A model generated the notes under the pieces. That model was not told the origin of the DNA, did no database searches, and worked only from the letters and a program-made list of their open reading frames with translations. From Owenia fusiformis (taxonomy: Eukaryota), in NCBI GenBank assembly GCA_903813345.2, contig CAIIXF020000001.1:13392001-13456000 (forward strand): a stretch of DNA of 64,000 bases, given 5' to 3'. The first letter of the stretch is position 1. Each line of letters begins with the position of its first letter. This document shows, one piece after another, positions 360 through 42,754 of this stretch. The translations under genes and the position numbers were made by a program.

Positions 360-3300
360 TTATTGCTTCAGATGAAACTCGTCAACATCTAGTGGTACAA
401 ATTCTCCTTCCTTAAAGAGTCGCTGCCATTCATTACCTTCGGGGTATGTGTAATCAGCTATCGAGGCAGGGCTCAACTCTGTACTGTAGCCAGGAGCCTG
501 AAACAGAAAATGACCTTTTTTCATTCGAATAGCATAGGTTGGTGAAAAACAGATTTTAAGAATATTTAGAAAAAAATACCTCTGAATTAAGTGATTACAC
601 ATTCCCTAGGGGTAATATATTTCCTCAACAAGGAAACACATTGATGGAGTATATTCAGGTATTATGTTTCCTCATTGATACACAGATTTGATGACGACAT
701 CATCAAGAAATACCACAATTGTACACAATGGATTTCAGATTTTCTGTAGCATCTCAGATCATGATTCCAGTATAAAAAGGTGATCATTTACCAATGGAGC
801 AGTGTAGCAGCCATTCTTCATGACGACTGGATTAACAAAGTGTTCAAAAAGATGATCAGCGCTCTCAGTCATTCTGAAAAAAATATAACATTAGTTTTTG
901 AACACCTCTCTAATCAGAAGATCTCTCAATGTGAATACTTTTCAGTCAAATTTTTATCTATCATAAACTTTTATGTATTGTTGAAAAACCTTGAAATGTG
1001 AACACCTGCCAATCCGAACACTTTTGGCTGGTCTAAATGGTGTTCAGATGAGACAGGTTCTACCGCAAATTCATTTCGTTGATGTAACCTTAGAAATCAA
1101 AACTTTATAGTATGAGTTCAGGAACACTTCTGGTAATACACCCCCAGACTATTTTATATATTTTACTTGTAGGCAGATACTGCTCACCATGTGAAAACAG
1201 TTTCAAAGTGTTTCCCTGGGCCCGATCCTAAGTGGAATATATTCTTACACACGTTCAAATCATTTTTGTTTTCATGGTACATGAGGCAACCAGGATTAAT
1301 AATTGCAAATCTTTAATTTTTCTTATTTGTATTAACACAGCATTAATATGCAAAATGTCACCACCTGCCATTTGTTACATACGCCGGATGACAACCAACA
1401 TCACAAAAAAGTTGGAGACCATAAGAATATGCCACCACTTTTGGCGGTGACATAAAAATCATAGATTAGTACAAGTTCATGAGCCTGTGGTTGAATGCAT
1501 TTGTATGGGCGATTGGTCATACGTATAGGTTGGAGTTTCGATTCTATATGCAAGCTTAAACTCCCTTATACCTCTAGGCTTCCCAAATAGATTTACAGTC
1601 TGAAGCAACTTGCAATTTTCATACCTACTCTCCAAGGTAGCTGATATACTGATGTAATCAAATATGGACAGATGTTGTACCATCTCACAGAGACCCACCC
1701 CTCCTGCATGAGGACACACTGGCACTGAAAGAAGCACACCAGGTGTATGTATTCCATAATAATATTGACTAGACTACTGTCTTTGGTACGTAAGAAGTGG
1801 GAATTTAGGAGTACATGCTGTTACTTTGAAGCAAGGTCTTAAAGTTACAATACAAGAGCTCTCCTAATTCATGAAAGTTTCTGTATATTGAAATTGACTT
1901 ATTTGGTTTTAAAGAGGTTACATACACAGGTCAGTTTGATACTAAAACATGTTTGTTTGATGTTGAAAAGTGAGAGGAAATACTTTAGAAAAGTGGTCCT
2001 TTAGGAAGAGGTTAATTAAATTAAAATTTAATTATTTAATTAAAAAGTCAAAAAATGTGGATTTTACCATTAAATTTTTTGGCCATTAAAAGAACAGCAA
2101 TAATCTCATTAACCCCTCCCAGTCTGCAACTGTCTATTTGGCAGAATTGTAGGCCCTTGGCTTGTAGAAACTGTTTAAACATGACTCTGTTCTGGCAACA
2201 TTCTCCTGTGGCCACTCCACACCCATAGGGCTCCAAGGCCTACAAATGTAGACCCCAAATGTCAGTAAACACATTGTATATTACAGTTCAAAACTCCTCA
2301 TCACCTGTCAAACAAATGAATTACACTGTACACTTTTTAATTAAAAATCATAATGAAATAAGTTTGGAATGAATTAAAATTATGTAAACCTCCAAAATAA
2401 TTTCTTGTTGAAAGCTCACATTTGAAAACACAGGACTAAATTCTATGCTAAGGGCCTGCTTCTGAAAGCTTTACCTTTGCAATAGCTGCATGCCCAAGGA
2501 CATCATCTGGACTAGTAGGTTCTTCTATCCACAGGAGGTTGTACTTCACCAGATGACCCATCCATTCAATTGCCTCATCCACTCCCCATTTTTGGTTTGC
2601 ATCTACCATCTATGAAAAGAAAGACATATTAAGTACCAGTCTGAGTTATGAACCAATCACCTCTTTTTTACTCAAATTCTTCCTTGGCTAGTGCAGCTGA
2701 ATCTATGAAAAAACTCCATTCTAAAATTATTTGTAATTTTGTAGGATGACTGACAGATATGTTTGCCATTGGAGTGTAGTTCATAATATAACGAAAAAAG
2801 CTGATGATGTATAAAAAAATGATGTATAAATGTTGAATATGATATGCAACTTGAACTTACAATAGTGGTATCAGGTCCTAGCTCTTTCCTGACAATCTCA
2901 AGTCTTCTAATATCATCCTGCAGATCTGAGCCGACCTTGAACTTGAACCTTGAAAAGCCATTAGCTTTAGCTGTGGCTAGTCTCTGTAAAATAATAATAA
3001 AAACAAGGTATTAAAATGCAAAATGTCACCACCTGCCATTTGTTACAGACACCGAATGCTGGACAGCAAACAGAGATTGCCAACCGCCATCACAAAAAAA
3101 GTTGGAGAACATAGCAATATGTCACCACTTTGGTGTTGACATAATAAAAATGCAAATAAAATCAAATGCAAATAAAATCAAAAATGATACATAAAGAGAT
3201 AAAATGTTTTATACTACACCTGTTTTATCTCATCATTTGAGTAGCCCAGCCAGCCAGCTGATGTGGTGTATGCTGGGTAACCATTTGTCCGAATTTCCTT

Positions 3301-6300
3301 CTCTGTAAGATATGAAATAGCATTTGACATAAAATGTCCAAGTCTCTGATGTTAAAATGAAGAGAAATGAAACGGGGGTGTCTTATGAACAATGCCTGGC
3401 AAAATATGATAGAACTGTGAATGTAGTTATTTGTTATTTTACTCAACAGTATGTAGTGTAGACTTATGTACTATACTACCCTGTACTATTGTTTACCTCT
3501 TTCTGCTTTGCCAGCCTGGTTGTTCCTTAAAATCTCCAGGGCTTCTTCCTTTGAAAGGGCATCCTCTCTGCAAACATTGGATATAATAAATATCTCATTG
3601 ATGGAGATGGAATATCAATGCAATTAACATGTTTATTACAGGGTGGGATGGAAAGATTTGTCAGCTATGGGGATAAAGCTATTTTCATAAGAATACTAAA
3701 GAAACCTCTTACAATGTAATTTAGTACATATAACCTGTCTAAAGTGAACATTTCTAGGATCATCTCAAAGTGTTCCTATTGAGAGATGTGAACACCAAGA
3801 GGATCTGATAACATCATTAGTCCACTACTTTGTAGAAGCAAAAAGAGTGTTTGTATTTACAGGTGTTCACTTTTGAGTGGTGGTCCCACATTGACACACC
3901 TAGGATATAATGTTGCAGTAAATGTATCTAAGACTTACATATATCTGAAGTCTATCAAAGAGATGATTTTTTCAGGTTCCATATCAACCAGCAACTTCCA
4001 TACTGGCTACAAAAACAAAGTACATATATGCTGAAACTGATCAAGTTGAACCTCTCATCTCAAGTGAGGGTAATCAAAGGGAGACTTACTTAGCTAAGAG
4101 TCTTCTGCTTTGGAGGACAAATGGGCGAATACGGTATTTAGTGACATTTGTAGTCTTTATCATTTTACAAGACCTCATCTAGCCTCACTATGTAGCCTCA
4201 TGAAATGCTATTCCTTCTTGCAATATAACCCTAATTTGCATGTTGCATCAAGTAATTCGGAGCTTGATCCAGAACATCATGTACAAAACGCTATGGTGTG
4301 TAGTTATGTTTGAATGTATCAGGGCAGTGATCTCCCCAGCATTAAAGCGCAGCACCCACCTGACATTTTAAAAACAGGCTTGAACCCACCTGAGATTTCA
4401 TTTGCACCCACTTTAAAATGAGAAAAATAGGCATATTTTGACCAATTTTGGACTTAATTGTGAAAATGAGAATTTTTTACCCACTTGAAAAAATATTCTG
4501 GGGAGAACACTGCAGTGCACATAGAACACAAGACTACTTCAATGAGTGGTTCCTTTCATGAATACATGCATAAAAGTATGACCATGTAATATGTGGGATA
4601 TGTGCCTATGCATAATATCATGATCTCATAATACTGATTTCTTTACCTTTCCTTCTATCTTGGCCCAGAGGTCCCAGAGTGCATTCACAATAGCTGCAGT
4701 TGCAAGATGCATTACTCCCTTCTCTGGTCCCAACTAAAATATAAATGATATAACATTAATGACCTCCACAGAGGTTGACTGTTAAAATTGTATCCTTGTA
4801 ATGCAGTGGTGCAGTCTGAATTCATAGTGGATGGAATAAAGTAGACTACTTTTTTTGATTTATATTATATATCACATCATTTTAGGCAAACCCACAATAC
4901 TATTAACTGGCAATGCATTATATGGCCATTTAGTCAAAACTATTAATCACTCTTCGACCAATCAAAATGAAGTATCTAGATTGTAGTTGAAGCAAAAAGA
5001 AATATTCTTATGACTATTTTTGTGGTGCCATGGTAATAATACATACTAAATATAACCATGAAACAAGAATCATATCATTTTAAGCCATTCCACCAAGCTA
5101 AGCAGTTTATCATGTATTTACCCATCTTAGCTGTTGTTCATTGGTTATCTCTCTCCAAAAGCCAGCAAAATCATCATAAATAGCGGAAAGTTTCCAATCA
5201 AGTAGGATTCTGGTGAGGGGCTTGATAGCAGCACATACTGAAAAAAGAGACTATTGTTTGCAAGTTCTGAACTTCTAACTGATTAAGTACTTGAATAGTA
5301 CAATCATGTAATATATGTATGTACAATTCATAATGGCATATTAATGAAACATTTACTATTTTAATCTGCAGGATATGACAAAATGTAATTCTGGTAAAAA
5401 AAATAATAATTGCAGCTTGCAATAGATATCAGGGCTCTCCCCAGGCTTTTAGACTGTGGCGCAGCACCACACTTTATTTAGCACCCACCACAACCTACTG
5501 GCAAATCATGATTGTTTCAACAGTCTAAACTTGGCTGAATATACAATAAAAGCATACTGAACGGTAATGTTGATGATGGTTTGCACCCTAAATATTTCCT
5601 GATGAGAGCCCTGGATATAATACCAAATTATATAAGGCAGGCAGGGACAAGCTAAAATCTAGCATGATTGAATGTCTTAAAGTAATTAGAAGCGAAGAGA
5701 GTGTAGACTTTTGGAATTAGAAGCAATCTTCAAAAATAAAGTCAATGTTTACTTTACAATTCTTATTTCATTTTCTAAAAAAAGATTTGAGATATCCGAT
5801 GAAATGTAGAAGTTTTTGAAGATTTCAGATGCAGAAAAGTTCAAATTCATTAAAATTGAAAAGGGAGACATCCTTTTTTCCAATTTTCCAGATAACCTTT
5901 AAAAATCAAAAGATTACCTGGTACTATATATAGCCAAAATGCTCGACCTGAACAGAAAATAGCCATTTCACGGAATGAGAACAAAACTATTCAGTAAAAC
6001 TTATCTGCAGCATTCACTTAAACAGGTTTACTTGTGCCAGAAAACTACTTTTTAAAGTGGAGATATACCTATATGAGTGCCACGGCCAAGGGTAAAGGTC
6101 AAACCATGACCTTGAAGTCCAGTATCTGTGCTAATTATTACATAACCACAGGAATAATCAGGATCTCCATGCTAGAAACAAATAGCAATAACTAGGTGAC
6201 TCATAAAAGATGAAAATGAACTTTAAATTAGACATTACAACAAGGTTCCTGTTTTCTTGATGGTTATTATTAGATAATGATGCCTTGAACAGTAATTCAC

Positions 6301-9300
6301 ATGAATAATCTTAAATAATGTAATTGTAAATTATACACATATACTATAGACATGCAATTCATAGTTTGATAAATGAAGCATTAATTCGGTAAATAACTGA
6401 GCTAAGCAATTCAAAGCATCACTAGTATGGCAAAGAAAATCAACACAATACTTCAAGACCATGGGTATTTGAAGCAAACATATACTTTTGGAGGAAATAT
6501 TTTGTTATTATTATAAGAATAACAAGTATAAAATTAACTGGCAATCACAGCTAGGTGAGCAGTACAGTAGGGTACAGTATGGTACAGTACAGATAGAATA
6601 GTACACAACAGTACAGTACAATGGACAATGCAGACACTCTATTTGTGGGTATAGCATGTTACTTTAAGATGATCTCTTAACATAAGACATAAGCATGGCA
6701 CATAAGGGTTCTACATGTGGCTATTAGGTTAGCAAAATTATCAAAGCATATGATATGTGAGGTTCTAGCTATAGAGTTGGAAAAATTACTCAAGTAAGTA
6801 TAATGGCTTATAAGGCTAATGGTTGGCAGAATTCTTCAAGCATGTGTTCTATTTAGTATATGGCACAAGGAAAGGATTATTGACATCCTGAGTGAAATAA
6901 CAATAACATGGAAGACCAACATAGAGACCTCCCATAAACCCTAATCCCCTCCCTCCCATCAGCCAAACCTTCTCTGGCAGAGTTACCTTCTCTACAACAA
7001 TTCAAATATTTGGAGTAGATTATTCTACTAAAGGCTAGCTACAAGCTCCTGTGACCCCCCCCCCCCCTTCTACTTGATTACACACCTTTACATGCTTATT
7101 GGGATGAGTAGTGGTTTGGGATCACAAGGGTTTGTAGCTAGACTAATTCCATCAGAGAGATTTGGCTACTGCCCCATGTGATAAGTTTGAATGTGTTCAG
7201 AGTCAGGTAATCTTAAGCTTGTGACTTGGTGAGGTAATACAATGCCAGTAAATGTTACACTTGCTCTCTAACCAATTTCCGTTCCTCTGCCAGCAGTAAA
7301 TGTCTGCCCACACCCATAGATGTCACTATCTGTTTGTAGAATTACATGAGCCATGGAATGATCAGGTACACTCTAAAACAGTAGTAGTATGAGTAGATGT
7401 ATTAGCATGATTTCCACTACTTGATTTAAAGAATAATACATTGAGTTACTAAATTCCCCAAAAAATTTGCTCTCTTTGATTATTGCAACTTCAATGAAGT
7501 CCCTTACATATGTGTATAAACACACCAGCATTAGAGTTTTGTCAAAGTATAACTGGGCTAGCTAAGCTCAAATCTGACCATTCTCCAGTTTACCAGTGTA
7601 CAACTGTGGCTATTTACTTATGTAGTAGCAATGACACTGAATGACCATGTCAATCTCAATGACATGAACATATCATTGTCAATTTCATAGACAGAAATAG
7701 AATTGGCTAAATTCAACCCTAAATTGACAAGGAGGATTGGCTCCCAGGATCGAAACTCGATATTTTCCAACAATGAAAACGTCGAAATGTCGTTATTTTC
7801 TGAAATTAAAACCGACTATAAATCAGGGGTACAATTACTCCCGGGAAATCCTTCGACCACCATGTTGCCCACATGACACAACCCTCAAGTTTGATGCCCG
7901 ATCATTTTTTCAATTTTTTATTTTTGCGCAAAATTCGTTTTGCACCTTCATTCCAAGATACCCGGGTTTAGCGCGCGCGTACTATAACGTCACTATAGCA
8001 ACGTTTTGACCTTGAACTAATAGGATAGAAACGCGCTGCAGTGTCTGAACGGGTCACGACAATGCAGCCTTTTTGCACGTTTCATGGACAATCTTCGGTA
8101 TTATTAAGGTAAGTTTAAAACGAGGAATGCCACTGGAATCCTGAGATTCACAGCTTTGACGTGGTATGAAAAAGGATCCATAAATATTGCGATTTCTTAC
8201 TGATTGAGACTCTCAAACTTTGATGAATAAAAACAGGTGCTTTTCCTGAGACCCAGCGTCTTCTTAATTTTCAGTACTTTGCTAGAAGGTTAGAAATTTT
8301 TTCTTTGGTACTCATTTGGAGCACATAACAGGTGTACATTTGAGCAACTTTGAAAATTATTCATCAAATTTTGACGGAATTATCAACCAAAGTGTTGGTG
8401 GATTTTGGTGTCATTTGCAGTTCAAATTGTTAGTTTTCAGCGTCTCTAGATAAGGGATTTTGAGGAAAAGTTGTGAAAAGCTTATTTCTGAGGGTTCATG
8501 AATACAGGTCAATGTGTGTGTAATATCTAAGCATAACTCCTGGTAGATTTTCTCATCCATCGCCATTTGTACCCCCCGAGACTTCAAATGTGGGTCCCTA
8601 GTCCAGTTCGAATTGTTCGATTTCCTTATATGGTGTTTAGACACCATATGAACGATTATTTCCGAAGGTTCATATATTCAGCTTAATGTGTGTTAAATAG
8701 CTAAGCATAACTCCTGATAGATTTTCTCATCCATGGCCATTTGTACCCCCGAGACCTCAAATGTGGGTCCCAAGTCCAATTCGGATAGTTCGATTTCATT
8801 ATATGGTGTTTATACACCATATGAAAGATTATTTCTGAAGGTTCATATATTCAGCTTAATGTGTGTGTAATATCTAAGCATAACTCCTGGTAGATTTTCT
8901 CATCCATGGCCATTTGTACCCCCCGAGACCTCAAATGTGGGTCCCTAGTCCAATTCGGATAGTTCGATTTTATTATATGGTGTTTATACACCATATGAAA
9001 GATTATTTCTGAAGGTTCAATCATATATTCAGCTTAATGTGTGTTAAATAGCTAAGCATAACTCCTGGTAGATTTTCTGATCCATCGCCAGTTTTACCCC
9101 TGAGACCTCAAATGTGAGTCCCTAGTCACCATATGAAAGATTATTTCTGAAGGTTCATATATTCATCTTAATGTGTGTTAAATAGCTAAGCATAACTCCT
9201 GGTATATTTTCTGATCCATCGCCAGTTTTACCCCTGAGACCTCAAATGTGGGTCCCTAATCCATGTAATCTGGTTTGGATTGTTCGATTTCCTTAAATGG

Positions 9301-12300
9301 TGTTCAGACACCACTTGAAAAGTTTATTTCTGAAGGTTCATATAATCAGCTTAGGATGTGTGTATTAGCTAAGCATAACTCCTAGTATATTTTCTCACCT
9401 ATCGCCATTTGTACCCCCGAGATCTCAAATGTGGGTCCCCGACTCCCCAGTCTGGTTTGGATTGTTCGATTTCCTTATATGGTGTTCAGAGTTCAGACAT
9501 GCACCACTTGAAAAGTTTATTTCTGAAGGTTCATGTATTCAGCTTAATGTGTATGTAATAGCTAAGATAAACTCCAAGTAGATTTTCTCATCCATCAACA
9601 TTTGTACCCCCAAGTCCTAAAATGTGGGTCTGTAGTCCGGTTCGGATTATTTGATTTCCTTATATGGCGTTTAAATACCACATGAAAAGATATAATACAA
9701 TATATGACAATACATGTATTACATTGTATTATATGATCTCAAGCTCATTTTATTTACCAGTTCACTAGTTTTATTTTGTATTTTATTGGGTCTAAATTGA
9801 TGGGTGCAACATTCATTCAAATTACACATATAAAAGCTTTTTATACCTTCTAAATGATCAATATTATTCATTATCAATAATGTACACTTATTTTCTTCCA
9901 GCTACCGAGTGAGAATGGACATGACTAGCAACCATGCCTCTTTACCTGTTGACTCCATCTTTGAATGTTATGCCAATGATTGAGATCTGCCATGTTGCAG
10001 AAAAATGTGATTTTCGAGGTATGTACACAATGTTAGATAAATCGAATGTACAGAGTGTCAAATAAATATGATAGATAGTTTTACTGTGCTAAGGAACAAT
10101 TCAGATATCATGCAGACAAAAAAGTTACCCAACATTATGTGGATCATAAAGTTAAGGGGGAGAACATATTTATTTGATACCCTGTACAGGGTGTCCCGAA
10201 AGTATGGGGGCCCCCTAGGCGGACACATACCAATGTCTTCATAGTATGTGTCATATATCATTTTAAAGCTTATCCAAACTTACATTAATTTGCCAAGTAT
10301 CATGGTTCAACTCACAAAAGGTAAATAGTTACAGGCATTTCAAAACTAAGTGTTTAGCTAAACATATAGTTCATTTCAGTATCCTGGTAACAGCCCTGAC
10401 CTGAACATGACCGAAAATATGAGAGCTATTGTCGACAAAAGGATGGATATTGAGTTCTAAAAAGAGGAAGTTGGGGGTAGATACTCCAGGGAAACTCTTC
10501 TAGAATGCTTTAAAAAAGTTTTATGAGGATAAAAAAATGCCAAATCCCTATTTGAAGCACGTTTAAGGTCATATATGGAAAGCATTGCTGCCATTAACAT
10601 GGCTTAGGGACTCCGGGAGACACACCGACTATTATTTTGGTGTAAAACTGACTTTAATTTTTTTTTAACTTTTTCCCATTTTGAGTTCAACCGTGATACT
10701 TGGCAGATCGGTGTAATTTTGGATGATCTTTCAAATGATATATGGCACACTATGGAGACATTGAAAAATGTCTGCCTAGGGGGGCCCCCATACTTTCTGG
10801 ACACCCTGTATATTAAATGCCCATATAAAGTTCCAGTCACTTTGGCTTAGAGCTTAGGCTTTATTATGCGTGTAGTACTCCAATAGTAGACCAATGTTTT
10901 CAAAATGCGGTATGTGAGGCCTTTCAATTTAATTTCAAGAAGACTTACTAAATACATGTACTAAATCCTGCTCTTGTGTATGTTTCATGAGATTTTATCC
11001 AAATTTTGGACAGATTTTGTTTTTTTTACTGTGACACCTGAATACTGCCACAACATCATTATTAAATATTATTTGTATACATTTACTAGTAGAATATGCA
11101 ATTTCTTATATCAAATTCAATTTATTTCAGTAATGCTGACATCTGCGTGCGTATTCTATACATCTGTGTGAGTGGGAATGTATGAGACTGACTCCTGAGG
11201 GAAATGCCACTGTTGTAGAGCTGCATCTCAGTCTTCTACTGACTACTATGCGGTAATTTCAAGCTTATATTTTATTTGACAACATGGCATCTCTTGGACT
11301 CCAAAGCTGTTTGAAGCTATGAAACTTGATAATATTGTATAATTTAAAAATAATATCATGAACACTCCTTGTAATCATCGGTAGAATTTTGGTCAATAAT
11401 GATGTTTTACTTACCAAACTTAACTGAGATTTTAAATGGCAAACAATGCAATAATATGCTCCAGAAGAGGAAATAATGGAAATGTATTCAATATATTACG
11501 GGTTATGGAAAAATTTCAATTGATTTTCTTTGCAAATATCAATGTCTCTAACAATCTATTTAATAACAAACTGCAATGCATAAAAATAGATTCTATGATT
11601 ATTTTAAAGCTATACAATGATAACAAACAACCCCGATACTTTTTCTTGGTATATAAAAACCTAAAAATGTTGATTAAGCAATATAATATTATGAAACAAG
11701 TTCAACACATCTAGAAATTATCATAGAGTCACCAATAGCCATTCATATTTTAGGAATCATTTTGTTGGAAATTCTATTATCTTCCTAATGATATATAATT
11801 TATGGATTTATGGAACACATCAGCAGATATTACAAAATCAAAATCAAAAATGTGGACTTTTTTGGTCTACCCTGTACATGTGTGAGATGTGTACTATATT
11901 TACGAGTGTGCCATAACTATTTTAAATCCTGTAACTTCAATTTTGTACCTGTAATGTGTACTAGGCCTGAGGAATGAACCAAGTCAGCTGCTAATGCTGA
12001 CACACCATCCTTAATAAATGTTCTTATTTAGAATATATAATTTCTAATATTAAATTGAATAAATTTCCCAGCAAATTATTTAAAGCTATAAAATATGTAA
12101 TAAAATACTGATGATTACAAGGAACTTCATGTTTTGATTTTTTAACCATAAATATAAAGGGGCTACCACTAAAAATCACTAAAAACAATAATTTCTAGAT
12201 TATATTTAATAAATTTAATGAAAAATCTTGGTCTGTTTTACTTGGTCTTCCAATATTTTCTAAGACTTTCTTTTACCCTACATGTGTTAAATAATCCTCA

Positions 12301-15300
12301 TTTGCTTTCAGATAACAACACATTATGCTCCATTATCCCTCATCGCTCAGGTATCAGGGAACTGGGGAATGAATAGATGACAGGAATCTCCCGAAAATCA
12401 AGAAGAAACATATTCACAGTATCTTCCTAAATACACCTTGGAAAAAAAAAAATCATCTACTAGTGTAGTATATGTAACACTTGGACTTAGAACAATATGA
12501 TTTAAAATAAACATCAAAGTGACAAAGAAGAGACGTAGAACTGAAAAAAGAGCTCTAATACAGAGTGAGCTAAAAAAGGTAACCAAAACAAATCTCAATA
12601 ACTCAGTCACCTTGCATGGGTTTAGTGTCATATTTTGCACAACAAGCCTTGTCCAATGTATTAGTATACCAAGTTTTCAGTGGTTATCCCATCGAACAAA
12701 GTTCGGAGGGATATAGGGAGCGCCTCCGTCTGTCCGTCCGTCCGTACGTACATACGTCCGTCCGTCCGGGCAATAACTCAAATACCGTTGGCCCGATTTT
12801 GTTCATATTTTGTACACATATACCCTATGGGAGTAGAATGTCTGCTTGAAAGCCGATTTTCAAAATGGCGGCCATTTTAGTGACGAATTTACAGTAATTT
12901 AGGTGCAATATGTAAAATTTTTAAAAATGGCCACCATTTAAACGTATTTTACTATAACTCAAAAAGTAGTGGAGCCATTTTGTTCATATTTGGTATGTGA
13001 ATACTATAAGCATGACACACTGTCCTATGACACTTTTGGTAGATGGTGGCCATTTTGAAAAATGGCCACCATTTTAACGTATTTTACTATTACTCGAAAA
13101 GTAGTAAAGCGATTTTGTTCATATTTGGTATGTGAATACTATAAGCATGGCACACTGTTAAATGACACTTTTGGTAGAAGGTGGCCATTTTTCAAAATGG
13201 CCGCCATTTTAACGTATTTTACTATAACTCGAAAAGTAGTGGAGCGATTTTGTTCATATTTGGTATGTGAATACTATAAGCATGACACACTGTCCTATGA
13301 CACTTTTGGTAGAAGGCGGTCATTTTTCAAAATGGCCGCCATTTTAACATATTTTACTATAACTCGAAAAGCAGTGGAGCGATTTTGTTTATATTTGGTA
13401 TGTGAATACTATATCAAACATTCTGAAAGAATACGTTGGACAGTTGATTATTACATTATAAAGACACTCTTGAAAGAACCAATGTCCTATAAAACATAAA
13501 CAGTATTCATCCATTTAAAATGGAAGCTTTTTATTTAATTGTGTGATGTTACCAAATGTAAATATGTTTGTAAAACCACTCTGTTTAAATACAGGTAAAT
13601 AAATAATTAAATTAAATATAAGCACGGCACACTGTCTAATGGCACTTTTGGTAGAAGGTGGCCATTTTGAAAAATGGCCACCATTTTAAAGTATTACTAT
13701 AACTTGAAAAGTAGTGGAGTGATTTTGTTCATATTTGGTATGTGAATACTATAAGTATGGCACATGGTCTAATGACACTTTTGGTAGAAGGCGGCCATTT
13801 TGAAAAATGGCTGCCATTTTTGCTATATACTTTGTTTGTAAAAATGCCATCCATGGGTGTTCGATGGTATTCGCTACGCTTTGGCGTTGCCGTTGTTCTG
13901 GTTGTATCTCTAGTGGTCATGATTTTATGGCCATAAAATATGGGCGTCAAGTCTGGAGGCCAACTTGAACGTATTGGGCGTAGTCTTGTTCACAACACAA
14001 GCATAAACATTTTGTGTTATGGCTCTCATCTTCCTTCTTATCTCTTGTTTCAATGTTTCAAGGGTTGTTAGTGTAGAAAAAATAGACCCAAAGATAAAAA
14101 GCTGGTGGGATTTATGTCCAGTCAGTCATTTCGGCATTTGGACCATGTTTTGTAGATGACCATAAAATCGTGACTCTAAGGGACAGACCAATGACATTGA
14201 TTAAGGTTTAGTTGTGCCAAATATGATTTTGAACCCATGCTGAATGACTGAGTTATTTACATACATTTGTTTGGGTTACCTTTTTTTGGCTCACTCTGTA
14301 TGTAATAATCTTAGTTTTCCTTGAATAAAGTGTGAGATACATATGCAACCCAAATATATTCTAGAATTGAAACAATATAAGTAAAGATTGTTTGTTGCTT
14401 GATCTGATTCTACCTTTACCTATGTGAGGAATAATCAAAATAAAGAAAAATAAAGAAGTGGAACTTTAACCTTAAAAACTTGTAAAATGATTGTTTTTAC
14501 ACTTACATCATTATAACAGAGATATAGTGACAATGACAACTGACAAGATAGTAAAATCAGCTTGTAAAATCAGATGATAATCAAAACCAAAGTGCTGCCA
14601 AGACTTACACTCCCCTTCAAAAGTTTGGCTTTAATTTGAACAACTGCTTGGGCTGGAAATCTAAACTGATATAATTTCCTAGTATAACTTCATTTTTTCT
14701 CATTTTATATACAAAAGATTGCAAATTGATGGCAAATTAAATTCATTTTTAAAAATTGTCATCCAGATGTAAACCAAAAATGTTTTAACAAACTTTATTT
14801 TTTTAAAAAAATTGATATAATTTTTCAGGTTTTATAAAGTTATATGTCTCCAAAGTCAAAACTATGCTTTTTCAAGAAACATATCCCTTAAGATAACATA
14901 TGAGGTATGAGAATATCCACAAATTGAACTGAAGACTTAGCTAGTAAACAATGGCACCCTTATTTAAAGTGTTCGCATTGCTTATTTAAAGTGTTCATTG
15001 CATGTTATGTTAAAAATCAACCAGAGTAATCTAATAGGGAAGTTTGCAAAACTTGGAGTGGAGTGTAGATGGATATACGATAACGTGAGAATAAAGGGCG
15101 GATCAGTTAAATATAGAAAAAATCAGCATATACTTCCAGAATAGTAATAAGTTACATCCTTTGATATTTCACTTTTCATTCAAAAGACTGGAGAGACCAA
15201 TGGATCCATCTAGTTCATACTCCTTGTTTATCCCCGGTAAAAACGTCATATACACACTAGACGAAAACGCATCCAATGGACAACCCTATTGTGAAAAACG

Positions 15301-16379
15301 AACCTGACGGCAAACGAAAAGTCTGTCCGATAATGTACGCAATTGATATTTTTCGTCGTGTACCTTGAATATTATGATGAATTTCATTCATGTTATCGCG
15401 ATTGTGATTGTTTACAATGTATTACAGTATGTTTTGGCCGATTCAACCTAAAGAAGGTACTTCTAATTCTCCGTCAAAGACCAATACAAAATGCCGGAAA
15501 ATCGAAAAATAATTTTGTTATTGGCTGGATGAAGAAAACTAGGAGACGAATACTATTATTATTTAGCGAAAAAATAAGCTTATGATGTGGGCTTTCTGAA
15601 TCAAAAAAGATTGAAATTATTTTTTCATGTTAAAGGGGTCTAATTTATCGTTAAAGTAAGTGTTGTCAATGTAAACAAACATGTCGGCGAATTTGATTTC
15701 TCGTCTTTAAACAATGATATTTGTGTAATAGTTGAATACTATATTACGAATGTTAATGATTTAGAAACCCAATTTCAATAGCTCCATGCTCGTATATAAC
15801 ATTCTATATATCTCCCAATAATAATGAAATAAGAAGTAATTTTCTCAAGGGTAGTACAATTTTTTTCGAAAATCCAATGGATCAATCTTGATACGCGCGA
15901 GGTTATCACGCCACATCTTGGTGGGCACTATCGTGGGCGAAAGCTCATTGTCCAAATCGCTCTAGTTTGCGACGTTAAACACAGAAGAAAACTCACCCCT
16001 GCTATAAATTCAAAATAAACAGTTCAAAAGATTCGAACCAATATCTCGATCATTTCTTGTGAGTTTTGGAATTTTTCGTTTGGAAATAAGACCAAAATTC
16101 ACGATTTAAATGTTGAAGTGAACAAAATGGCGGCTGTTTGAATTCGAATTTTGTATTACGACATACCCATATATGGGACAGAATATCGGTGGTGCACTCT
16201 GGGAGCCAATCCTCCTTGCTAAATTGAAGAACAATGCATTCTCCGATTTTGATGACAGTTTCTCCAAAATGTAAAATGATACCTTATCTTACCATTGCAT
16301 CCGATCCATGTTTTCCCAGTGACGTGGGGAAGCGAATATCTTTGATGTCTACACCAGTAATTTTGGTCGGTTTTGCCAT
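360..16379 (-). CDS. ENOSF1: Mitochondrial enolase superfamily member 1 / L-fuconate dehydratase-like, 13 coding exons, ~454 aa
   Basis: Phase-consistent GT-AG exons: 16293-16379 ([29 protein letters not shown]), 6069-6171 or 7273-7372, 5122-5237, 4647-4733 ([25 protein letters not shown]), 3939-4006, 3497-3567, 3220-3302 ([15 protein letters not shown]), 2861-2983 (FKFKVG, KxK motif), 2475-2609 ([18 protein letters not shown]), 2068-2239 ([16 protein letters not shown]), 1625-1724 ([17 protein letters not shown]), 792-873, 360-497 (stop TAA). The motifs match the ENOSF1/FucD family. Confidence 0.95.
1334..1457 (-). mobile_element. HINE-like family B, short copy
   Basis: gcattaatatgcaaaatgtcaccacctgccatttgttac...ggagaccataa..atgccaccacttttggcggtgacataaaaa, shared with at least 6 other loci in the window. 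Confidence 0.65.
3001..3145 (-). mobile_element. HINE-like family B, short copy
   Basis: Same terminal blocks as 1334-1457. Confidence 0.65.
6069..6171 (-). CDS. ENOSF1: ENOSF1 exon 2, canonical copy (2a): [34 protein letters not shown]
   Basis: Acceptor tgtttctag, donor GTATAT, 103 bp, phase 0 in and phase 1 out; matches the family motif DPDYS...GxTFTxGxGT. Confidence 0.9.
6559..6625. repeat. Degenerate (CAGTA)n microsatellite between ENOSF1 exons 2a and 2b
   Basis: cagtacagtagggtacagtatggtacagtacag... Confidence 0.6.
7273..7372 (-). CDS. ENOSF1: ENOSF1 duplicated alternative exon 2 (2b): [33 protein letters not shown]
   Basis: Acceptor tgttttag, donor GTTAGA, 100 bp, no stops, same phases (0/1) as 6069-6171 and clearly homologous to it at the protein level. 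Confidence 0.8.
8482..9692. repeat. Tandem repeat, ~174-bp unit, ~7 copies, inside the 8.5-kb element
   Basis: Unit ttatttctgaaggttcat...aaatgtgggtccc...caccatatgaaaga restarts at about 8482, 8656, 8829, 9003, 9141, 9324 and 9517. Confidence 0.9.
10186..10808 (+). mobile_element. Internally deleted Tc1/mariner element
   Basis: TA-flanked TIRs cagggtgtcccgaaagtatggggg / ccccccatactttctggacaccctg. Internal relic at ~10380-10435 translates [18 protein letters not shown], resembling the Tc1 WPxxSPDLNPIEN motif. Confidence 0.8.
12561..14298. mobile_element. Tc1/mariner-type non-autonomous element interrupted by a HINE-like insertion
   Basis: TA-flanked TIRs cagagtgagctaaaaaaggtaaccaaaacaaat / atttgtttgggttacctttttttggctcactctg. 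Confidence 0.75.
12684..13899 (+). mobile_element. Helentron-associated (HINE/DINE-1-like) element, family A, with ~135-bp internal tandem repeats
   Basis: 5' subterminal atcccatcgaac, GTCC microsatellite, tandem aaaatggccgccatttt...ggtagaaggcggccatttt units, 3' gttcgatggtat plus hairpin gctacgctttggcgttgc. A second copy lies at 48909-50026. Confidence 0.75.
14608..15065. mobile_element. Tc1/mariner-like MITE
   Basis: TA-flanked imperfect TIRs cactccccttcaaaagtttgg / gcaaaacttggagtggagtg. Confidence 0.5.
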
Positions 16380-21542: not shown

Positions 21543-24500
21543 CTATTGTGTTGTGCTTTTCGAAGCACTGTTGGTACGCTTGCGTAAGCGCTTCACTAGT
21601 GGTACCTCTGGTGTATCTGCGGCATCCTGAAATCATATTCTATCCAGAAAACACCATTCCATGGTCATATTTCATGGCATATCTTGAATTGAATTAATAC
21701 AGAGTTGGATTGGGTAAACTGGATTGTTAACAGCTAATAGGCAATTGATTTCAAAGTTAACAATCAAAATTTTGAATTAATTTATATTTGAGGTTGACTA
21801 GCTTGGAACAAACATAACACGGACCTGAGCAGTTCCATCAGTTGTACACTGTTCACAGGATTGTGCTATAGCTTCATCAACAGATATTCTTCTTCCCTTG
21901 TTCGTACTCTTGCGTAGTCTTTGGGAAAGTGTCTGGAGGGGAATCACATCAGACTCAGATTCCTGCAGAAAAATACAACACCCTTTGTCTTGTTTTAAAC
22001 ATTCATTGATTTTCTTCGACTCGCAGTGCCTTATGTTGCCCAGAATGATTACAGTATCACCATAGTTGTAGCATCAAGCTCAGCCCCCCCCATACTACTG
22101 CCATAAATGATGGGTTGATTTTTCAAATCATATTGAAATCTTGCGGTTGAAAAACATTGTCAGTAGTTGAAACAAAGCTGAATTTTCTAATAACCCACCT
22201 TATTTTCTGGTTTCAATACACAATTAGTTGCAGTGGTGATTTGGAAAATCAACCTCACATTTATGGGGGTACTCTGTACTGAATACCCTACAACATACTT
22301 TCTACAATATGATTTGGAAGATAGAGCAGTGAGACCAGCAAATTAATGAAACTATAAAAGTGATCGGTAACAAGAATTTTAAAATTTTGAATTTTTTGAA
22401 ATTGTGTAAGATTTTTACTCTAGTGAAATTATACAATGCCTTTGTTGTTAATTTTCAAAACAAATACAAGGGTTACCTCTGATACTGAGGAGGATGCAGG
22501 CAGCTGGCCACTGATAGAAGTTGATTCATTTGTATAAGCAGTACAGCCTACATCAACACATTGTTCATATCTATGCTCTTTATGTTCAGGCACATTGGAT
22601 TCCTACAAAAGAGAAAATGTAAAGGATCTTGGATGGTTGTGTATCAGTGTATATTTTCTACACTTGACACTTCAAATGGTTTGCCAGATGTAGAAGCAGT
22701 CAATAATCCACCAATTGAAGAACACAAATAATAAAGCAGAGGAGGAAACTCAATTACAAAATGACTCCAAAGAAAGTATTATATATCAACTTATATTTAT
22801 TTATTTTTTATTTATTTATTTATTCAGAACTACGCTTTTGTATCAGCGGCACACTTTCAAAGGTGCGTCTTTACAATAAAACATAATATATCTAAAACTG
22901 AGTCTAAAGAATCTTTAAGGTTGCACTAAAACTTTAATGGTTAAAATAGGTTTCCTATCCGACTCAAATACTAAATAACTAATACATCTTAAGTAAAAAC
23001 ATTTTAGATACTGTGTCAAATGTTGAACCTAAATCTTGTCCCCCAAGTCTAAAAGCCTCATCACCTAGAATCCATTGAAGTTTATATTCAGGTGAAGACG
23101 CGAAGAATGTTTCACTCAGGGCAGATGGAATTTTGCTTTCAATTGTTTTGAAGAACACATTACGATGGTCATTATAGTGGGGACAGAGTAGAAGTCTATG
23201 TTCTACCGTTTCAATCATATTTGTACAAAAATTGCAATTGGGGTCCGAAAGTTTATTTTTCCATCTACATGTTTCACTTTTTAATTGGAACTTTCCTAAT
23301 CTCACAAGGAACTTTATCCTTGCGCCCTGAAAGTCATAGTCATTTCTAAAGTAGTTTTGAAGTCCTTTTCTGGTGGAAAGTGTACTATAAAAGGATAAGG
23401 ATGATTTTTGATCAATTTCATTCTTAGTATAAGATTTACATTCTTCCCTTATCCTGTTATCGTATTCATTAATCATTTCATCAGAATCATGACTTATGCC
23501 ATCGAAACCGATGGAGGACAGAATGTCATCCATTTGTTCAATGTATTTCCAGCTATTGGTTTTATTATTTTTAAGTCTATGTGACAAAGCTGCAATGAGG
23601 TTGCTTATAAGAGAATTCTCACTTTTGCCTAAAAGATGAAAAAAGTATTCAACTTGTCGTTTCAGCACAATAAAATGTATAGGAGTCCATCCTAGCTCGT
23701 TTATAGCGCCAATATATGCCGGAGTGCTTTTGATATTGAAAATTGCTCGCGCTGCGTTATATTGCATCGACTGAAGTTTATTTCTGATCACTTTTGTATC
23801 TGTAACCCATACACCACACCCATGTAAGATGCTTGGTAGAAATTTACTTGTATATAACGTGTTCCCAAAATCAATCCTCTTAGCATTGAGATGTTTACTA
23901 AGGGTATATGAACTATGGTTTTTCATCTTGACCGCGTTTGGCGCAAGTTTGTCAATGATGTGACAAGAATCTTTTAAGGACCTATCAATAAAAATTCCTA
24001 GGTATTTATATGTTTGAACCTCATTTAATTTTAGATCTCCCAAAGACCAAAGTTTAAGTTTATCAATTTTCTTACCTACGACCATAATACTGGATTTTTT
24101 CTCACTAAATCTAAACCCCCATTTAATTGCGAACTTATTTGCAACTTGTAACATATTTAATATGCTATATATAATAACAGTGCAGCCCAATGTACATATA
24201 CGTAGGTTGCTAAGGAATTACATGGAGTTGCCTATTGGTCAAAACTAACATACGAATCAGTTCTTATGTTATTTGCATTAAACACATGTATCGAAAAAAT
24301 TAGTCCGTCTGTACATGTAGTAATATTCTCTATAGACAATGATAGACTAGATACCAGTCTTAAATGAAATCTACTAACCAATCTTCTGGAAGAATCATTG
24401 TGCCTTTGTTTCCTGTTCAGTTGAGAACTTCTCCATTTTTTCTCACCGCTGTCTGGTTCCTACGATATAATGTAACCCACAATAAACATGACAAAATGCC

Positions 24501-27500
24501 ACCATACTTCTAGATAGTGACAAAACAATCAGTTATACAAGCAAAATGTCACCATATGCCATTTGTTACAGTCACCAACTGCCAAACACCAACCACTGCC
24601 AAACACCAACCACTGAATGCTGAAAACCAACTGCCTAACACCATCCACAAAAGAGCTTATGTCACCACTTGTGGTGGTATAAAAAACAGTTCTCAATTTT
24701 AGAATATCAGTGAATATTTTTTCCTATTTTTATATGATATATTACAGACAAGTAAATGTTGCAGTTATATAAAAGTAAATGTTACAGTTATGTTAATACT
24801 GACAAAAATATTAGAACATACCAATAGTGTTGACACCGCAGGTTGATCTGCGACTTCATCATGTTCTGTATGTTCTGTATCATTAATCAGGCTCTGCATT
24901 GGTGTACTGTGGGTATTGCCCTCCTGTTTAGCAGCAACTCCTAAGTTTTCATTTCCTGGATCTTCTTCATTCTGACACATTGATGTTATTTCATCATCAG
25001 TCAATATTTGACAAGTTTCACCACTCAGTAGTTTTAGCGTAAGTTTTGATTTTTGTTTATCACAAGATCTATTACGCATGTGGCGTTTTGCATTGGATAT
25101 TGAGCAGAATTTCTTTTGACATCTAGAGCACTGCTTTTCAGAGCTGACAGTGTTGGCTTTTGTAACGCGAGCATCTCCTTTAGTATTGCTGTCAATTTGT
25201 AGATTTTCACATTTTTTACTTTCAGTGCAAGTTCCACATTTTAAGTGTATTTTCAAACCAGCAAGGGCAGAGAATTTCCTTCTGCATTTCCAGCACTTAT
25301 TAACAGTTTTCTTAGTTGTATCAATTTCAGCATGCCCTTTCATTTCAATGGACTGCTGAGTAGGATCACCATGTGATGTCTCCATGAAATGGCTCTGTGC
25401 GACCACATCTTCGTACTTCTTCATAGCTTTGTCTTGATTTTGCACATTGAATTTCCTGGACCTGGTTGTAGATGTTTGCTTCAGCCTTTGTTCAAACAAT
25501 GTATAAGAGCTCATTCTTTTGTACTTTGCTTCTGATAATTGACTCCTTTTGCTGAATTTGAAAGAATATGTCTTTGCAGCATTTCTACAATAGCCTTCAT
25601 GTCTTTGAATGATTGACTTGGCATACTTTTTGCGACAATAATTGCAGCTAACTTCTCTTGAGATAGAGCTCTTATCTTCGGTAGCTTTGACGGTTTTAAT
25701 TCCTTTTGATGTATATGATTTCTTTTTGAGGTCTTTAAATGAAGCTTTCCATTTTTCTTTCATGGTTTTTTGTTGAATATTTCCAGTTAATGAACCATGT
25801 ATGTTATTCACATGTTTCAAATCAGGCTCATCAATGGATGTTGAAATGGTTCTGTTGTTTTTCTCAACTTCAGCAATGGCATGTACAATTTTAGATCCAT
25901 ATGGCGATGACAGTGCTTCTGAATAGTGTTGACATTCATTCTTCTGTTCAGATATATCATTATCATATTCTAAATGAGCATGTTTGAAGTCTGCAGGTTT
26001 TTCCATGTCTGGAGAAGCAGTTGGTGGATCTGGGTTCTTCTCACAAGTACTTTCAATTTGAGGTTCAAGTGTAGCTGTTGCAGATGCTCTCGATCTATAT
26101 GGCATGGTGTCTGTTATACCTGGAGTGACATTTAAGGATAGTTGAGTATCAGCCGATTTTGAAACAGGAATGCCTTTATTTTCTGTAGTTTCCTGATAAC
26201 TTGTTTTGATTTCAGAATCATCAGACATAGTGTCCAACAAAATGAGATCATTATATACAATTGTCTCACTTGAGTGATCAGGTCTCATTATACAAAGTCC
26301 TTCATGTTTTAGTATACATTCGGAAGGCATCCACTTGTTACAGTACTGACATTTGCACTTGGGCTTCTTATGTGATAAAGTCTTACTTGAATACTGGTTT
26401 GATTTAATAACATTTGTTTTCTTAATAGGCTTGTTGATATTTTTCTGTTGCACTAGGTATTGGAATGGTTTCCCACTAGAGCTAGACTGAATATAATCTT
26501 CATCGTTAGTTTCTGTTTTTGGAGACACAAGATTTTCTATAGATTGTTTTGTCTGAATGAGGTCATCATTTAATTTAGTTTCAATTCCAACTCCATATTT
26601 AGGATGGTCAGCCTTAGTTCTATGTTCAATAACCCAATCACATATGTGATCTGGTATTTTTGTTTCTAAAGGTGTAAGGGGTTTACAGAATTGTGTTGCT
26701 GGCAGAGAATCTATGGTTTCCACCTTTGTAAGGGAAGATATTTCCAATTCATCAACAGGCTCTATTCCTAGACTGAAACTAGAAATCCGGCTTGATGATC
26801 TGGAATGATCCGTGTCATAGGGAAGTGTATCTTGGAATGAGAGAGGACTTATATTTTCTGAACCAACATTATTTATCTCAGTATCAACTCCAGCGATATG
26901 TTTTTCAGCTTGAGTATTTTGACTTAGACCTTCTGGTAATGTTGTGCTGTTATCTTCAAATTGTATATGTGATTTAGCATTCACATTTGAATAGGCATCT
27001 TTCATAATGACATCATCCCTGCTGTCACTTACCATTGGTAGTCTGTTGTTTTTTATATCGGATGTCAAAATCGTCCTAGTAATCGAGCGATCTGGATTCA
27101 TCTTTACTTCAATTGGAAGTTTCTGGGAACAAGAGAGTCCATGATCTTTCATGCTGTTTATAGATGAATGCTCATCTCTCATACTTTTTACATTTGCTTC
27201 TCCATCAGTATATATGTCTCTTTTCCCAGATGATATTACACTTTCAATATCACTTCTGATGGCTGGTTGAAATGTTTTGCTCGCTGTGCTAGAATCAATG
27301 TTCTCAGTTATTGTTGTCGATTTTGTTTCTTTTTGAGGAATAAATTCATGTTCTATTGTGTTGTTGTTCATATCCTTGTGATCAACTATGGAAGTTACTG
27401 CTTCTTTAGAACTAGTTTTCTGCCCCGATTCCCGATCTTTTGAAATCTCATTTGGTATACACTGTTTCCCAAACATTGCAAATGTATTTCTCACACTCGG

Positions 27501-37194: not shown

Positions 37195-37335
37195 TTCTTG
37201 TACTCGTACCTGTGCAATATCGTCCATTCTTGACTCGCTTTGATAATGTTTCTTTATCTCGTCTTCGACTCGATGAAGAAGAATTATCAAAGCTCATCAA
37301 GAATGGACGATCTTGCACAGGTACTCATATAAGAA
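37195..37335. repeat. Palindromic MITE-like hairpin just upstream of the RhoBTB-1 3' splice site
   Basis: gtacctgtgcaatatcgtccattcttga..gctttgataat / attatcaaagct..tcaagaatggacgatcttgcacaggtac. Confidence 0.7.
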
Positions 37336-37374
37336 CCTCTATTTCTTTTCAGGTATACGTATACAAAATTAAAG

Positions 37375-40300: not shown

Positions 40301-42013
40301 CCTAAATGATGAAACAGGGGCAAAGCTGAAGAAGATGTTCTTGAACAAACCTCTTTTGGCAGATATCATCTTCATCGTTGAAGGTAATAATTTCATATAA
40401 TATTCTTGGTACTAATCTAAAGTTTTCAATGAATCTTTACCAAGAAGTTTAAGAAACCTGTTTCAAGGGTTCATTTCAAATGCCCAATGGTATGGTTTCT
40501 TGTTTTGGTATAGGCCTAGTGGGTATTTGTGATGCAAATTCAATCTTTATCGCTGTGTGTCTTTTTTTGTTATTCGTGTCATCTTTATGTGTTCCAGGTA
40601 CCAAAGTGTTTGCTCATAAAGCAGTAGTGACTACCAGATGTGAAGTTTTAGCTGCAATGTTCAGTGGCCACTTTGTTGAGACCTCAAAGGGATCTTGCAC
40701 ACAGGTATTTTCTAAAACATTATATTTTAAGCAGTTCACTTATTAAAGAGATGATCACACATACATATATACATGTAAGGGCTTTTTGAGCTGGTTAATT
40801 CAATACACATGTATCTTCATTTGAACATGCTGTGCTTGAAATGCAGTCAGTAATGTGAATTCAAAAATATAAATTTTGCTAAAGACCATAAAATGTTTGG
40901 TGAGGATTATTGGAGACTTTCATCCAGATATCTTCAGCTCTAAATTCTATTGATTAGAATTTAACATACTGTGATCGGGATATTTGACCCTAATCACATG
41001 AAGTTTTTATCAAACACTCAGATTAAGCTTTTTGAAGCAAGCAGAGGAAAACTTTTGGATCAACCCTGGTACACATACTTTCAGAAAATAGTTCTTCCAA
41101 AAACAATTGATTCTTAAAACTTTTCCAGGTTGAGATTGGTGGGACCAGCCTAGCAACATTCCTTGCCTTACTGGAGTACCTTTACACTGATCACTCCCCC
41201 ATAGAGGAGAATGACTCCATTGAGATCCTCGTCCTTGCCAACCAGTATTGCCAGACAAGACTAATCAACCTATGTGAACTGTACATCACCAAAGAAATCG
41301 ATCGCTCAGTCACTAAGTCAATTGAAAAGTCAGACATTGATGTTATAGGACTCTTGTTGTCTTGCCAGGTAAGGTGCAACTTTTATATTGAAATTAATAA
41401 TAAATCTGAAAACAAATTTCAATATTATGATGCTTTATGTAAAAAAAAGGATGGGCCATACAAATTTAACACATTCATTACAACAACATCCAACGGACTT
41501 AACTTGTAAGATGCCAATATTAATGGGAACTTAAAGGGCTTGCATTTGAGATATTAATACATTTTACTCATACTACTTTAAATGTTTTACTAAACTGTAA
41601 GATTTTGATTGTGATGACATATTTCATTCAATCTGGAATTTATGAATTAACAGTAAAGAAATCTATGAAAAGAGATGCTCAATATGTCTGCCTTAATTGC
41701 CAATAATACAGCTCTCAATCTTTTGAAACATTTTCAACAATACATCAGTTCTTTTTAGTCTATTTATCTTCTTATTCTATTTCAGTTTCACAATGCTGAC
41801 CAATTAGCCAAATGGTGCCTACATTTCATATCTACTAACTACAGTGCATTTGTGAATCGTTCAGAATTCCCCCAACTTGCTGACAGTAACCTTGAATATA
41901 TAGAGGAACATAGGTGGCCTCCAGTGTCCTACCTCAATGAGGTAGAGGAGTACAATCAATTGATGAAGAAACGAGGCAAAAAATCAACATTTTTCAGCTC
42001 TTTGTTCTCCTAG
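37375..42013 (+). CDS. RhoBTB: RhoBTB / RacA-type protein (Rac-like GTPase + Pro-rich linker + 2 BTB + C-terminal domain), 10 coding exons, ~590 aa
   Basis: Exons 37375-37557, 37919-38087, 38313-38452, 38839-38953, 39126-39313, 39781-39952, 40153-40383, 40598-40704, 41129-41368, 41786-42013. Motifs [48 protein letters not shown] motifs AHKIIL, AHKAVV..RCEV..AMFSGHF, LEYLYTD; C-terminal HRWPP. Confidence 0.93.
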
Positions 42014-42673: not shown

Positions 42674-42754
42674 CAGGGTGATCATAAAATGAACCAGATT
42701 CATAAATATTTACAATAGTTAGAGCACTTTTGTTCTTAATTTATGATCACCCTG
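42674..42754. mobile_element. ~80-bp Tc1/mariner-type MITE
   Basis: TA-cagggtgatcataaa ... tttatgatcaccctg-TA. Confidence 0.7.

Follow-up and report, generated by a model that had tools for sequence, protein, structure and literature searches.

Results

Two homologous copies of exon 2 in ENOSF1

The 64,000-nucleotide (nt) stretch of Owenia fusiformis DNA analyzed here (contig CAIIXF020000001.1, positions 13,392,001 to 13,456,000, hereafter the window) contains the entire ENOSF1 gene, on the minus strand and in 13 exons, with two homologous open copies of exon 2 lying in tandem between exons 1 and 3. We refer to the copy found in the annotated protein as exon 2a and to the other as exon 2b. 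In every respect they are laid out like a tandem-duplicated pair whose mutual exclusion is enforced by the frame, and the reading that we put forward, with evenly balanced confidence, is that 2b is a real, selectively maintained partner of 2a that is used rarely or conditionally. Exon 2b is a credible, previously undescribed candidate for an exon that swaps the specificity loops of the enzyme; that it is spliced in Owenia is what we infer. The relevant parts of the gene are listed below, in window coordinates.

360-16379, minus strand: coding part of ENOSF1, with ATG at 16379 and stop at 362-360, in 13 exons
16293-16379, minus strand: coding part of exon 1, 29 residues, ending ..GSDAM in phase 0, donor gtaaga
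7373-16292, minus strand: intron 1 (8.9 kb), preceding exon 2b, with many tandem and dispersed repeats
7273-7372, minus strand: exon 2b, candidate for the alternative copy, 33 codons plus one base (100 nt)
6172-7272, minus strand: intron between exons 2b and 2a, 1101 nt
6069-6171, minus strand: exon 2a, the copy in the annotated protein and in RNA reads, 103 nt, 34 residues
5122-5237, minus strand: exon 3, 116 nt, opening with TA

The spliced translation of the 13 exons equals CAH1773130.1 (P0001, 454 amino acids) without a mismatch, and the 63-residue translation of 2239-2051 (minus strand) matches the same protein at 100% identity. The record is titled "unnamed protein product [Owenia fusiformis]", and its UniRef name is Mitochondrial enolase superfamily member 1. 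The protein matches the structure of human ENOSF1 (4A35, E 3.4e-191, residues 6-437) and that of the Xanthomonas L-fuconate dehydratase FucD (2HXT/1YEY, E about 1e-149), and it has the two-domain architecture of an N-terminal capping domain (Pfam MR_MLE_N, residues 40-137, 28.4 bits with a cut-off of 22) and a C-terminal barrel domain (MR_MLE_C, residues 206-419, 203 bits). Because of these matches and of both Pfam domains, the gene is, judged from its sequence, the annelid orthologue of ENOSF1, a member of the L-fuconate dehydratase family, which bears out the name given to it in an earlier note on this DNA. Two stretches with barrel motifs, one of 30 residues and CPHAGGVG, are conserved in the alignment to 4A35; we take these motifs to carry the metal ligands and the acid/base residues, the role of each residue being our assumption.

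Each copy of exon 2 is entered in phase 0 and left in phase 1, with AG before it and GT after it (acceptor ...tttgtttctag and donor gtatat for 2a, acceptor ...actgttttag and donor gttaga for 2b), and the terminal G of either copy forms a Val codon with the TA of exon 3 at 5237. Since each copy is 3n+1 nt long, transcripts with both copies or with neither stop early: exon 1 followed by 2b and 2a terminates at codon 5 of 2a, and exon 1 spliced straight to exon 3 terminates within exon 3. The earlier note had placed two homologous open exons at 7372-7273 and 6171-6069 and had argued that including both or neither breaks the frame; the coordinates are confirmed, and the early stops computed for both combinations agree with the second point. 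This frame incompatibility is the only mechanism of exclusivity visible in the sequence. Inverted repeats in 5100-7700 gave short AT-rich, chance-like matches and two repeat elements, with no convincing docking or selector RNA pairing among them. Steric exclusion was set aside, the 1101-nt intron between 2b and 2a being probably too long for it, and so was U12-type exclusion, the donors not being U12-like by eye.

When the exon peptides were compared with the 64-kb window by tblastn, the sole significant match was the other copy (E 1.4e-8, 17/31 identical), the next-best match having an E of 0.16, and a third copy of exon 2 is absent from the window, intron 1 included. The two copies are identical at 59 of 99 aligned bases and at 17 of 33 residues. 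The residue changes that had been reported for 2b, namely His for the Tyr of PDY, a segment shorter by one residue and TFTAG in place of TFTLG, are all real. The deposited annotation of CAH1773130.1 uses 2a.

Conservation of exon 2b

The proportions of synonymous and nonsynonymous differences between 2a and 2b (pS 0.593, pN 0.346) correspond to a dS of about 1.17 and a dN of about 0.46, a ratio of about 0.40. As a reference for invariance, we used 47 other exon 2 sequences from animals and bacteria, in which 12 columns are at least 93% invariant. Exon 2a keeps all 12 and exon 2b keeps 10, losing just two tyrosines, both replaced by His. In a neutral-drift simulation of 40,000 trials, 2a was randomly substituted 20, 27, 33 or 40 times, 40 being the number of differences observed; an open frame with at least 10 invariant residues arose in 3.6%, 0.45%, 0.065% and 0.0025% of cases, respectively.

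Local similarity between the copies is confined to the exon (one clear match, 65% over 97 nt, E 2.3e-6), and the flanks are identical at 33/60 positions upstream and 36/60 downstream, with a null expectation of 29.3 +/- 3.8. A likeness in the downstream flanks (TTT.CTGGCA about 25 nt past both donors) was rejected, since it lies within chance on these figures. The background level of the flanking-intron similarity and the near saturation of synonymous sites (dS about 1.2) indicate that the duplication is old, and the end of the similarity at the exon borders indicates that neutral sequence has been randomized since then.

Two read contigs, X3 and X1, extend over 2b; they show no splice joints and cover the introns in 26 and 24 of 30 bins, respectively, which makes them DNA-like and uninformative on expression. 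X3 differs from the window by 7 substitutions and 2 insertions and X1 by 4 substitutions, the variants of X1 being a subset of those of X3; all of these variants are confined to the flanking introns, and 2b itself has none. Since about 3 events would be expected in 100 nt, a variant-free 2b (P about 0.04) offers weak support for its maintenance.

We argue that 2b is not junk, because its invariant residues are kept, its flanks have diverged, and equivalent isoforms are predicted in nine other lophotrochozoan species (see below). Long-term purifying selection on 2b, suggested in the earlier note, finds support in the dN/dS of about 0.40, the 10 of 12 invariant residues and the diverged flanks. 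These features point to selection for most of the history of 2b, and a recent silencing would be compatible with them.

Equivalent isoform models in other lophotrochozoans

Relatives were compared by cluster look-up and pairwise comparison, all of them being isoform models from databases. In nine species, eight bivalves and the brachiopod Lingula anatina, we found isoforms of equal length that differ solely at residues about 28-63, which correspond to exon 2. Isoforms X1 and X2 differ at 16 positions in Mercenaria mercenaria (positions 31-61), at 10 in L. anatina (positions 28-58) and at 16 in Magallana gigas. The isoform pairs of Mytilus californianus, M. edulis and M. galloprovincialis show 13, 16 and 14 differences, respectively, that of Ruditapes philippinarum shows 16, and Crassostrea virginica shows 16 relative to an older X2 record. 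Mya arenaria has three variants, X1, X2 and X3, with 6 and 10 differences. The X2 copies of the oysters are 94% identical between genera, and those of Mercenaria and Ruditapes are visibly alike.

No exon 2 swap was found in the isoforms of Ptychodera, Schistocerca, Bacillus rossius, Pycnogonum, Argiope, Acanthaster, Dreissena, Pomacea and Patella, whose differences concern the N-terminus, the length or a few residues here and there. The vertebrate isoforms compared differ at the N-terminus or at scattered residues, none of them in exon 2, and Capitella has one annotated form. Because equal-length exon 2 isoforms are annotated in nine other lophotrochozoan species, a splice switch at the exon 2 position appears plausible. 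The NCBI pipeline is not known to call alternative variants without transcript support.

The alternative copies share residue changes with Owenia 2b. The tyrosine of PDY is present in 152 of the 181 sequences scored; 27 of the others are an artefact of the regular expression, and the remaining two, both Mya X3, have His, a rare change otherwise seen in Owenia 2b alone. One invariant tyrosine is changed in five of the nine alternative copies (Mya X3, M. californianus X2, M. edulis X2, M. galloprovincialis X2 and M. gigas X2). Directly after TFT, the residue is Ala in Owenia 2b, in all three Mytilus X2 and in the X2 copies of Lingula, Mercenaria, Ruditapes and Mya; their partners have Val or Leu there, and the single copy of Ixodes has Ala too.

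The Mytilus X2 copy evolves fast between congeners (62-88% identity), the X1 copies being identical or nearly so, and a different conserved tyrosine is changed in each species, with PDL in M. edulis and His or Asn at the second tyrosine elsewhere. M. arenaria also has a separate 109-residue "ENOF1-like" record that agrees with the C-terminal end apart from a few differences, a hint that part of the gene may be present twice.

A search of a representative library with the 33-residue peptide of 2b gave 25 matches. We took 16 of these to be spurious, as they are spread over multiple stretches of long repetitive proteins; the other nine are single-stretch fragments with 58-66% identity and a canonical PDY, from bacterial FucD-like, Mytilus genomic and vertebrate-like sequences. 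A second exon of the PDH type was not found in this library, in which clusters at 50% mask isoforms. A search ranked on the exon region of Mya X3 returned mostly bacterial fuconate dehydratases (66-78% identity), and alternative copies of this type look ancestral-like rather than novel.

Origin of the pair

The exon 2 tree and the approximately unbiased (AU) tests are based on 34 columns with little signal, and the group called "beta" received its name after inspection of the data. In this tree, Owenia 2b groups with Mya X3 (support 99/90). A mollusc clade (80/89) contains oyster X1, Pinctada, Mytilus X2, the gastropods and Mercenaria/Mya X1, whereas Mytilus X1, oyster X2 and Mercenaria X2 do not belong to it. 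The AU tests reject neither a duplication in Owenia only (p 0.245) nor a single clade of the "outside" copies (p 0.386), so the data fit one ancient switch common to these animals as well as several separate duplications. Shared and independent origins are likewise discussed for coq-2 and mrp-1 in passages of PMC7434440.

A broader version of our proposal, which we consider unlikely, is that the exon 2 switch is older than the split of annelids, molluscs and brachiopods, and that it alternates between loops with the canonical tyrosines and loops for another sugar acid, under regulation by diet, stage or tissue. The second set of loops would then have His or other residues at the tyrosine positions and a small residue after TFT, and Owenia 2b and Mya X3 would be orthologous survivors.

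RNA evidence and alternative explanations

Two raw stranded RNA-seq runs (X11 and X12) were mapped on 4500-7600 of the window, with about 6% of each run sampled. The joint between exon 3 and 2a (5237-6069) occurs in 7 reads of X11 and 3 of X12, and the control joint between exons 4 and 3 (4733-5122) in 14 and 6, respectively. In X11, 21 reads end at 6171 and match, beyond that point, the reverse-complemented end of exon 1. Depth is 14.5 (X11) and 3.5 (X12) over exon 2a and 12 and 4 over exon 3. Exon 2a is supported by at least 31 junction-type reads over the two runs, and it is used essentially always in these samples; because about 31 reads are informative, the usage of 2b there is below roughly 10%. 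Two samples at this depth of sampling set a bound on 2b usage and do not demonstrate permanent non-use.

Several observations weigh against a working exon 2b. RNA depth over 7204-7411 is zero in the sampled reads of X11 and X12, and neither run shows a joint or a loose end at 7273 or 7372. The splicing into 7273-7372 predicted in the earlier note was thus not borne out: 2b has 0 reads, while the 2a joints (7 + 3) and the reads into exon 1 (21) were recovered. Of the six indexed runs that contain exon 2b, X3 and X1 among them, none is on record as RNA, and the annotation carries the 2a form alone, with a 90% cluster of one member. The same note had called the splice sites of both exons good, which holds for the AG and GT at both copies and not for the donor of 2b, which has T at +3, a position occupied by a purine in each of the 12 donors of the annotated gene; the 2b donor is therefore weak. 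Exon 2b also lacks both invariant tyrosines and the usual His or Asn at its first residue, and its branch is long (0.51, compared with 0.16 for 2a, in the 34-column tree), an appearance that early decay would give as well; a dN/dS of 0.40 over 33 codons is likewise compatible with a rather relaxed 2b branch. As for the other species, their isoforms are pipeline predictions, every Logan-derived full-length member seen in the clusters of the oysters and Ruditapes has the common copy, and the AU tests do not establish orthology of 2b with the mollusc copies. The splice switch proposed in the earlier note therefore stands as regards architecture, conservation and isoform precedent in nine species, and is unsupported as regards use of 2b, with 0 reads in two samples.

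These observations would suit a relic, a possible if doubtful explanation in which 2b, perhaps derived from an old lophotrochozoan pair, once worked and is now silent and in early decay, the protein being made from 2a alone. The absence of RNA reads on 2b in two runs, compared with at least 31 junction-type reads for 2a, is what such an exon would give, as are the non-consensus GTT of the donor, the loss of both invariant tyrosines, the first His and one codon, the long branch and the missing annotation. However, the frame of 2b is still open, both of its splice dinucleotides are intact, 10 of its 12 invariant residues are retained, and haplotypes that differ in the flanking intron show no difference in 2b. 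Moreover, the loss of the tyrosines need not mean decay, because annotated isoforms of Mytilus, Magallana and Mya show changes of the same kind.

Two other explanations were considered. It is very unlikely, in our view, that 2b is a poison exon, included alongside 2a and lowering ENOSF1 output via transcript decay, with its coding look as a leftover of its origin. Inclusion of both copies does lead to a stop five codons into 2a, and decayed transcripts are rare in RNA-seq, which fits the zero reads; yet the 7273-6171 joint, from 2b into 2a, was not seen in X11 or X12, a poison exon would need no conserved residues and 2b keeps 10 of 12, and nine other species model the alternative copy as a replacement rather than an addition. 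Hardly credible, and already disfavored, is a duplicate of recent or accidental origin that has never undergone splicing and owes its open frame and motifs to chance or to its short age. An open frame of 33 codons is indeed not rare, and 26-49% of randomly substituted copies stay open, but the dS of about 1.2, near saturation, and the flanks at background indicate that the copy is old, its retention of invariant residues is improbable without selection, and the same exon is duplicated and modelled as an alternative in nine other species.

Proposed function of the exon 2 pair

In the reading that we prefer, of 2b as a maintained and rarely or conditionally used partner of 2a, the exon 1 donor would join the acceptor at either 7372 or 6171, and the chosen copy would then join exon 3. 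The reading frame would enforce the choice, both copies being 3n+1 long, and transcripts with a wrong combination would presumably be degraded. Exon 2a would be the default in the samples seen, and 2b a minor or conditional choice, confined to particular stages, tissues or environments.

Exon 2 encodes residues 30-63, which belong to the N-terminal capping domain and include the PDY and TFTxGRG stretches; the MR_MLE_N match begins at residue 28 in Mya X3 and at residue 40 in CAH1773130.1. We take these two stretches to be the "20s" and "50s" loops, and the PDY tyrosine is presumably the residue listed as substrate-binding in UniProt for FucD and ENOSF1. Passages of PMC9795676 state that, in the enolase superfamily, the capping domain mainly sets substrate specificity. 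For human ENOSF1, L-fuconate is the preferred substrate, and L-galactonate, L-arabinarate and others are also turned over, as described in passages of PMC13406643.

The catalytic barrel, encoded by later exons, would be unchanged between the two forms. The 2b form would have His in place of both conserved tyrosines, a segment one residue shorter and Ala for Leu, and these changes suggest that it probably has an altered sugar-acid preference. The swap from 2a to 2b would thus spare the barrel and affect positions at or close to the substrate, and its most economical reading would be that the preference among sugar acids shifts.

Repeats and other features of the window

The introns around exon 2 contain several repeats. 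A 184-bp element with 16-nt inverted repeats (5430-5445 and 5598-5613) occupies 5430-5613, in the intron between 2a and exon 3. Its word depth in DNA-like runs reaches about 27,600, compared with about 10 in the flanks, and RNA reads map to it on both strands; it resembles a high-copy repeat of the type of miniature inverted-repeat transposable elements. The intron between 2b and 2a holds a second high-copy inverted-repeat element at 7032-7144, with 27-nt arms that are 81% complementary, a G/C homopolymer run, a depth of about 1,000 in DNA-like runs and RNA reads on both strands, as well as a (CAGTA)n run at 6560-6620. Tandem arrays occur in intron 1 at 8477-9630 (periods of about 174, 134 and 193 nt, 82-94% matches) and at 12917-13413 (135 nt, 92%). 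Open-frame fragments related to these arrays (for example "VTNGRW") recur at 19111-19022, 3121-3029 and 1374-1258, which suggests that they are dispersed repeats.

Four further features of the window were noted, the last three identified by eye.

22979-24217 and 24765-30044 lie on the minus strand and the other two on the plus strand, as follows.

24765-30044, minus strand: uninterrupted frame of 1759 codons with a long internal array of repeats of about 19 residues (DKTGSSMNDVSNVDLDVTA-like) and several Cys/His motifs near the C-terminal part; over the repeat, the other strand is open too
22979-24217, minus strand: 412-codon frame, reverse-transcriptase-like tail of a retroelement
37333-48086, plus strand: small-GTPase domain exons followed by BTB-like exons, a RhoBTB-like gene
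60851-61738, plus strand: 295-codon frame with NHL-repeat-like sequence

Discussion

The closest counterparts of the Owenia pair are the ENOSF1-like isoforms of bivalves and Lingula in RefSeq, which concern the same gene and the same exon, have equal lengths, and often show the Ala after TFT and the tyrosine changes of Owenia 2b. They differ in being predictions from other phyla or classes, whereas Owenia 2b is unannotated and so far has no RNA support. The earlier note had stated that no such switch was described for ENOSF1. We likewise found no description of a homologous-exon switch in this gene in the full-text literature, searched with bivalve and Crassostrea terms included, although switch-type isoform models of bivalves and Lingula are already in RefSeq. 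Three splice variants of human ENOSF1 (rTS), alpha, beta and gamma, are described in passages of PMC13406643, gamma being the L-fuconate dehydratase, and alternative splicing in the 5' part of the human gene is known from PMC13406643 and PMC1261261. No homologous-exon swap was found for the human rTS forms in the literature searched.

Homologous-exon swaps are known from other enzymes. Exons 9 and 10 of pyruvate kinase M are mutually exclusive tandem-duplicated exons. Passages of PMC7434440 describe the mutually exclusive exons 6a and 6e of coq-2, through which nematodes, flatworms, annelids and molluscs direct COQ-2 to ubiquinone or to rhodoquinone precursors. Like the candidate pair of Owenia ENOSF1, 6a and 6e are homologous tandem exons of the same or nearly the same length that affect part of a substrate-binding core, and they occur in annelids and molluscs; in contrast, coq-2 encodes a different enzyme with a different fold, and its splice forms, regulation and metabolic effect are experimental, whereas the Owenia ENOSF1 pair is known from sequence. 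The oyster alternative oxidase is another enzyme with tandem-duplicated mutually exclusive exons (PMC5589949), and the gate-domain exons of ACSL6 similarly yield, from one gene, two proteins that differ in one homologous segment (PMC1543647). Exons 7a and 7b of ATE1 also swap a homologous segment, and according to PMC7797038 the choice is made via competing RNA structures; in Owenia ENOSF1, no convincing pairing of this kind was found in 5100-7700. In the oyster alternative oxidase, ATE1, ACSL6 and pyruvate kinase M, the swapped segment tunes the handling of a ligand, as we propose here.

In the enolase superfamily, the shared barrel provides the chemistry and the loops of the capping domain provide the choice of substrate. 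The gene model of Owenia ENOSF1 may lack an isoform, and the isoform models of bivalves and Lingula deserve a look. Should 2b prove silent, the locus would be a dated example of the loss of such a switch. If our reading is correct, a metabolic enzyme would be added to the short list of homologous-exon switches in annelids and molluscs (coq-2, mrp-1 and the oyster alternative oxidase), and an exon swap limited to the loops would constitute a natural experiment on how specificity is set and evolves, with matched pairs from at least 10 species. The finding would be of greater interest if the switch were both ancient and specificity-changing.

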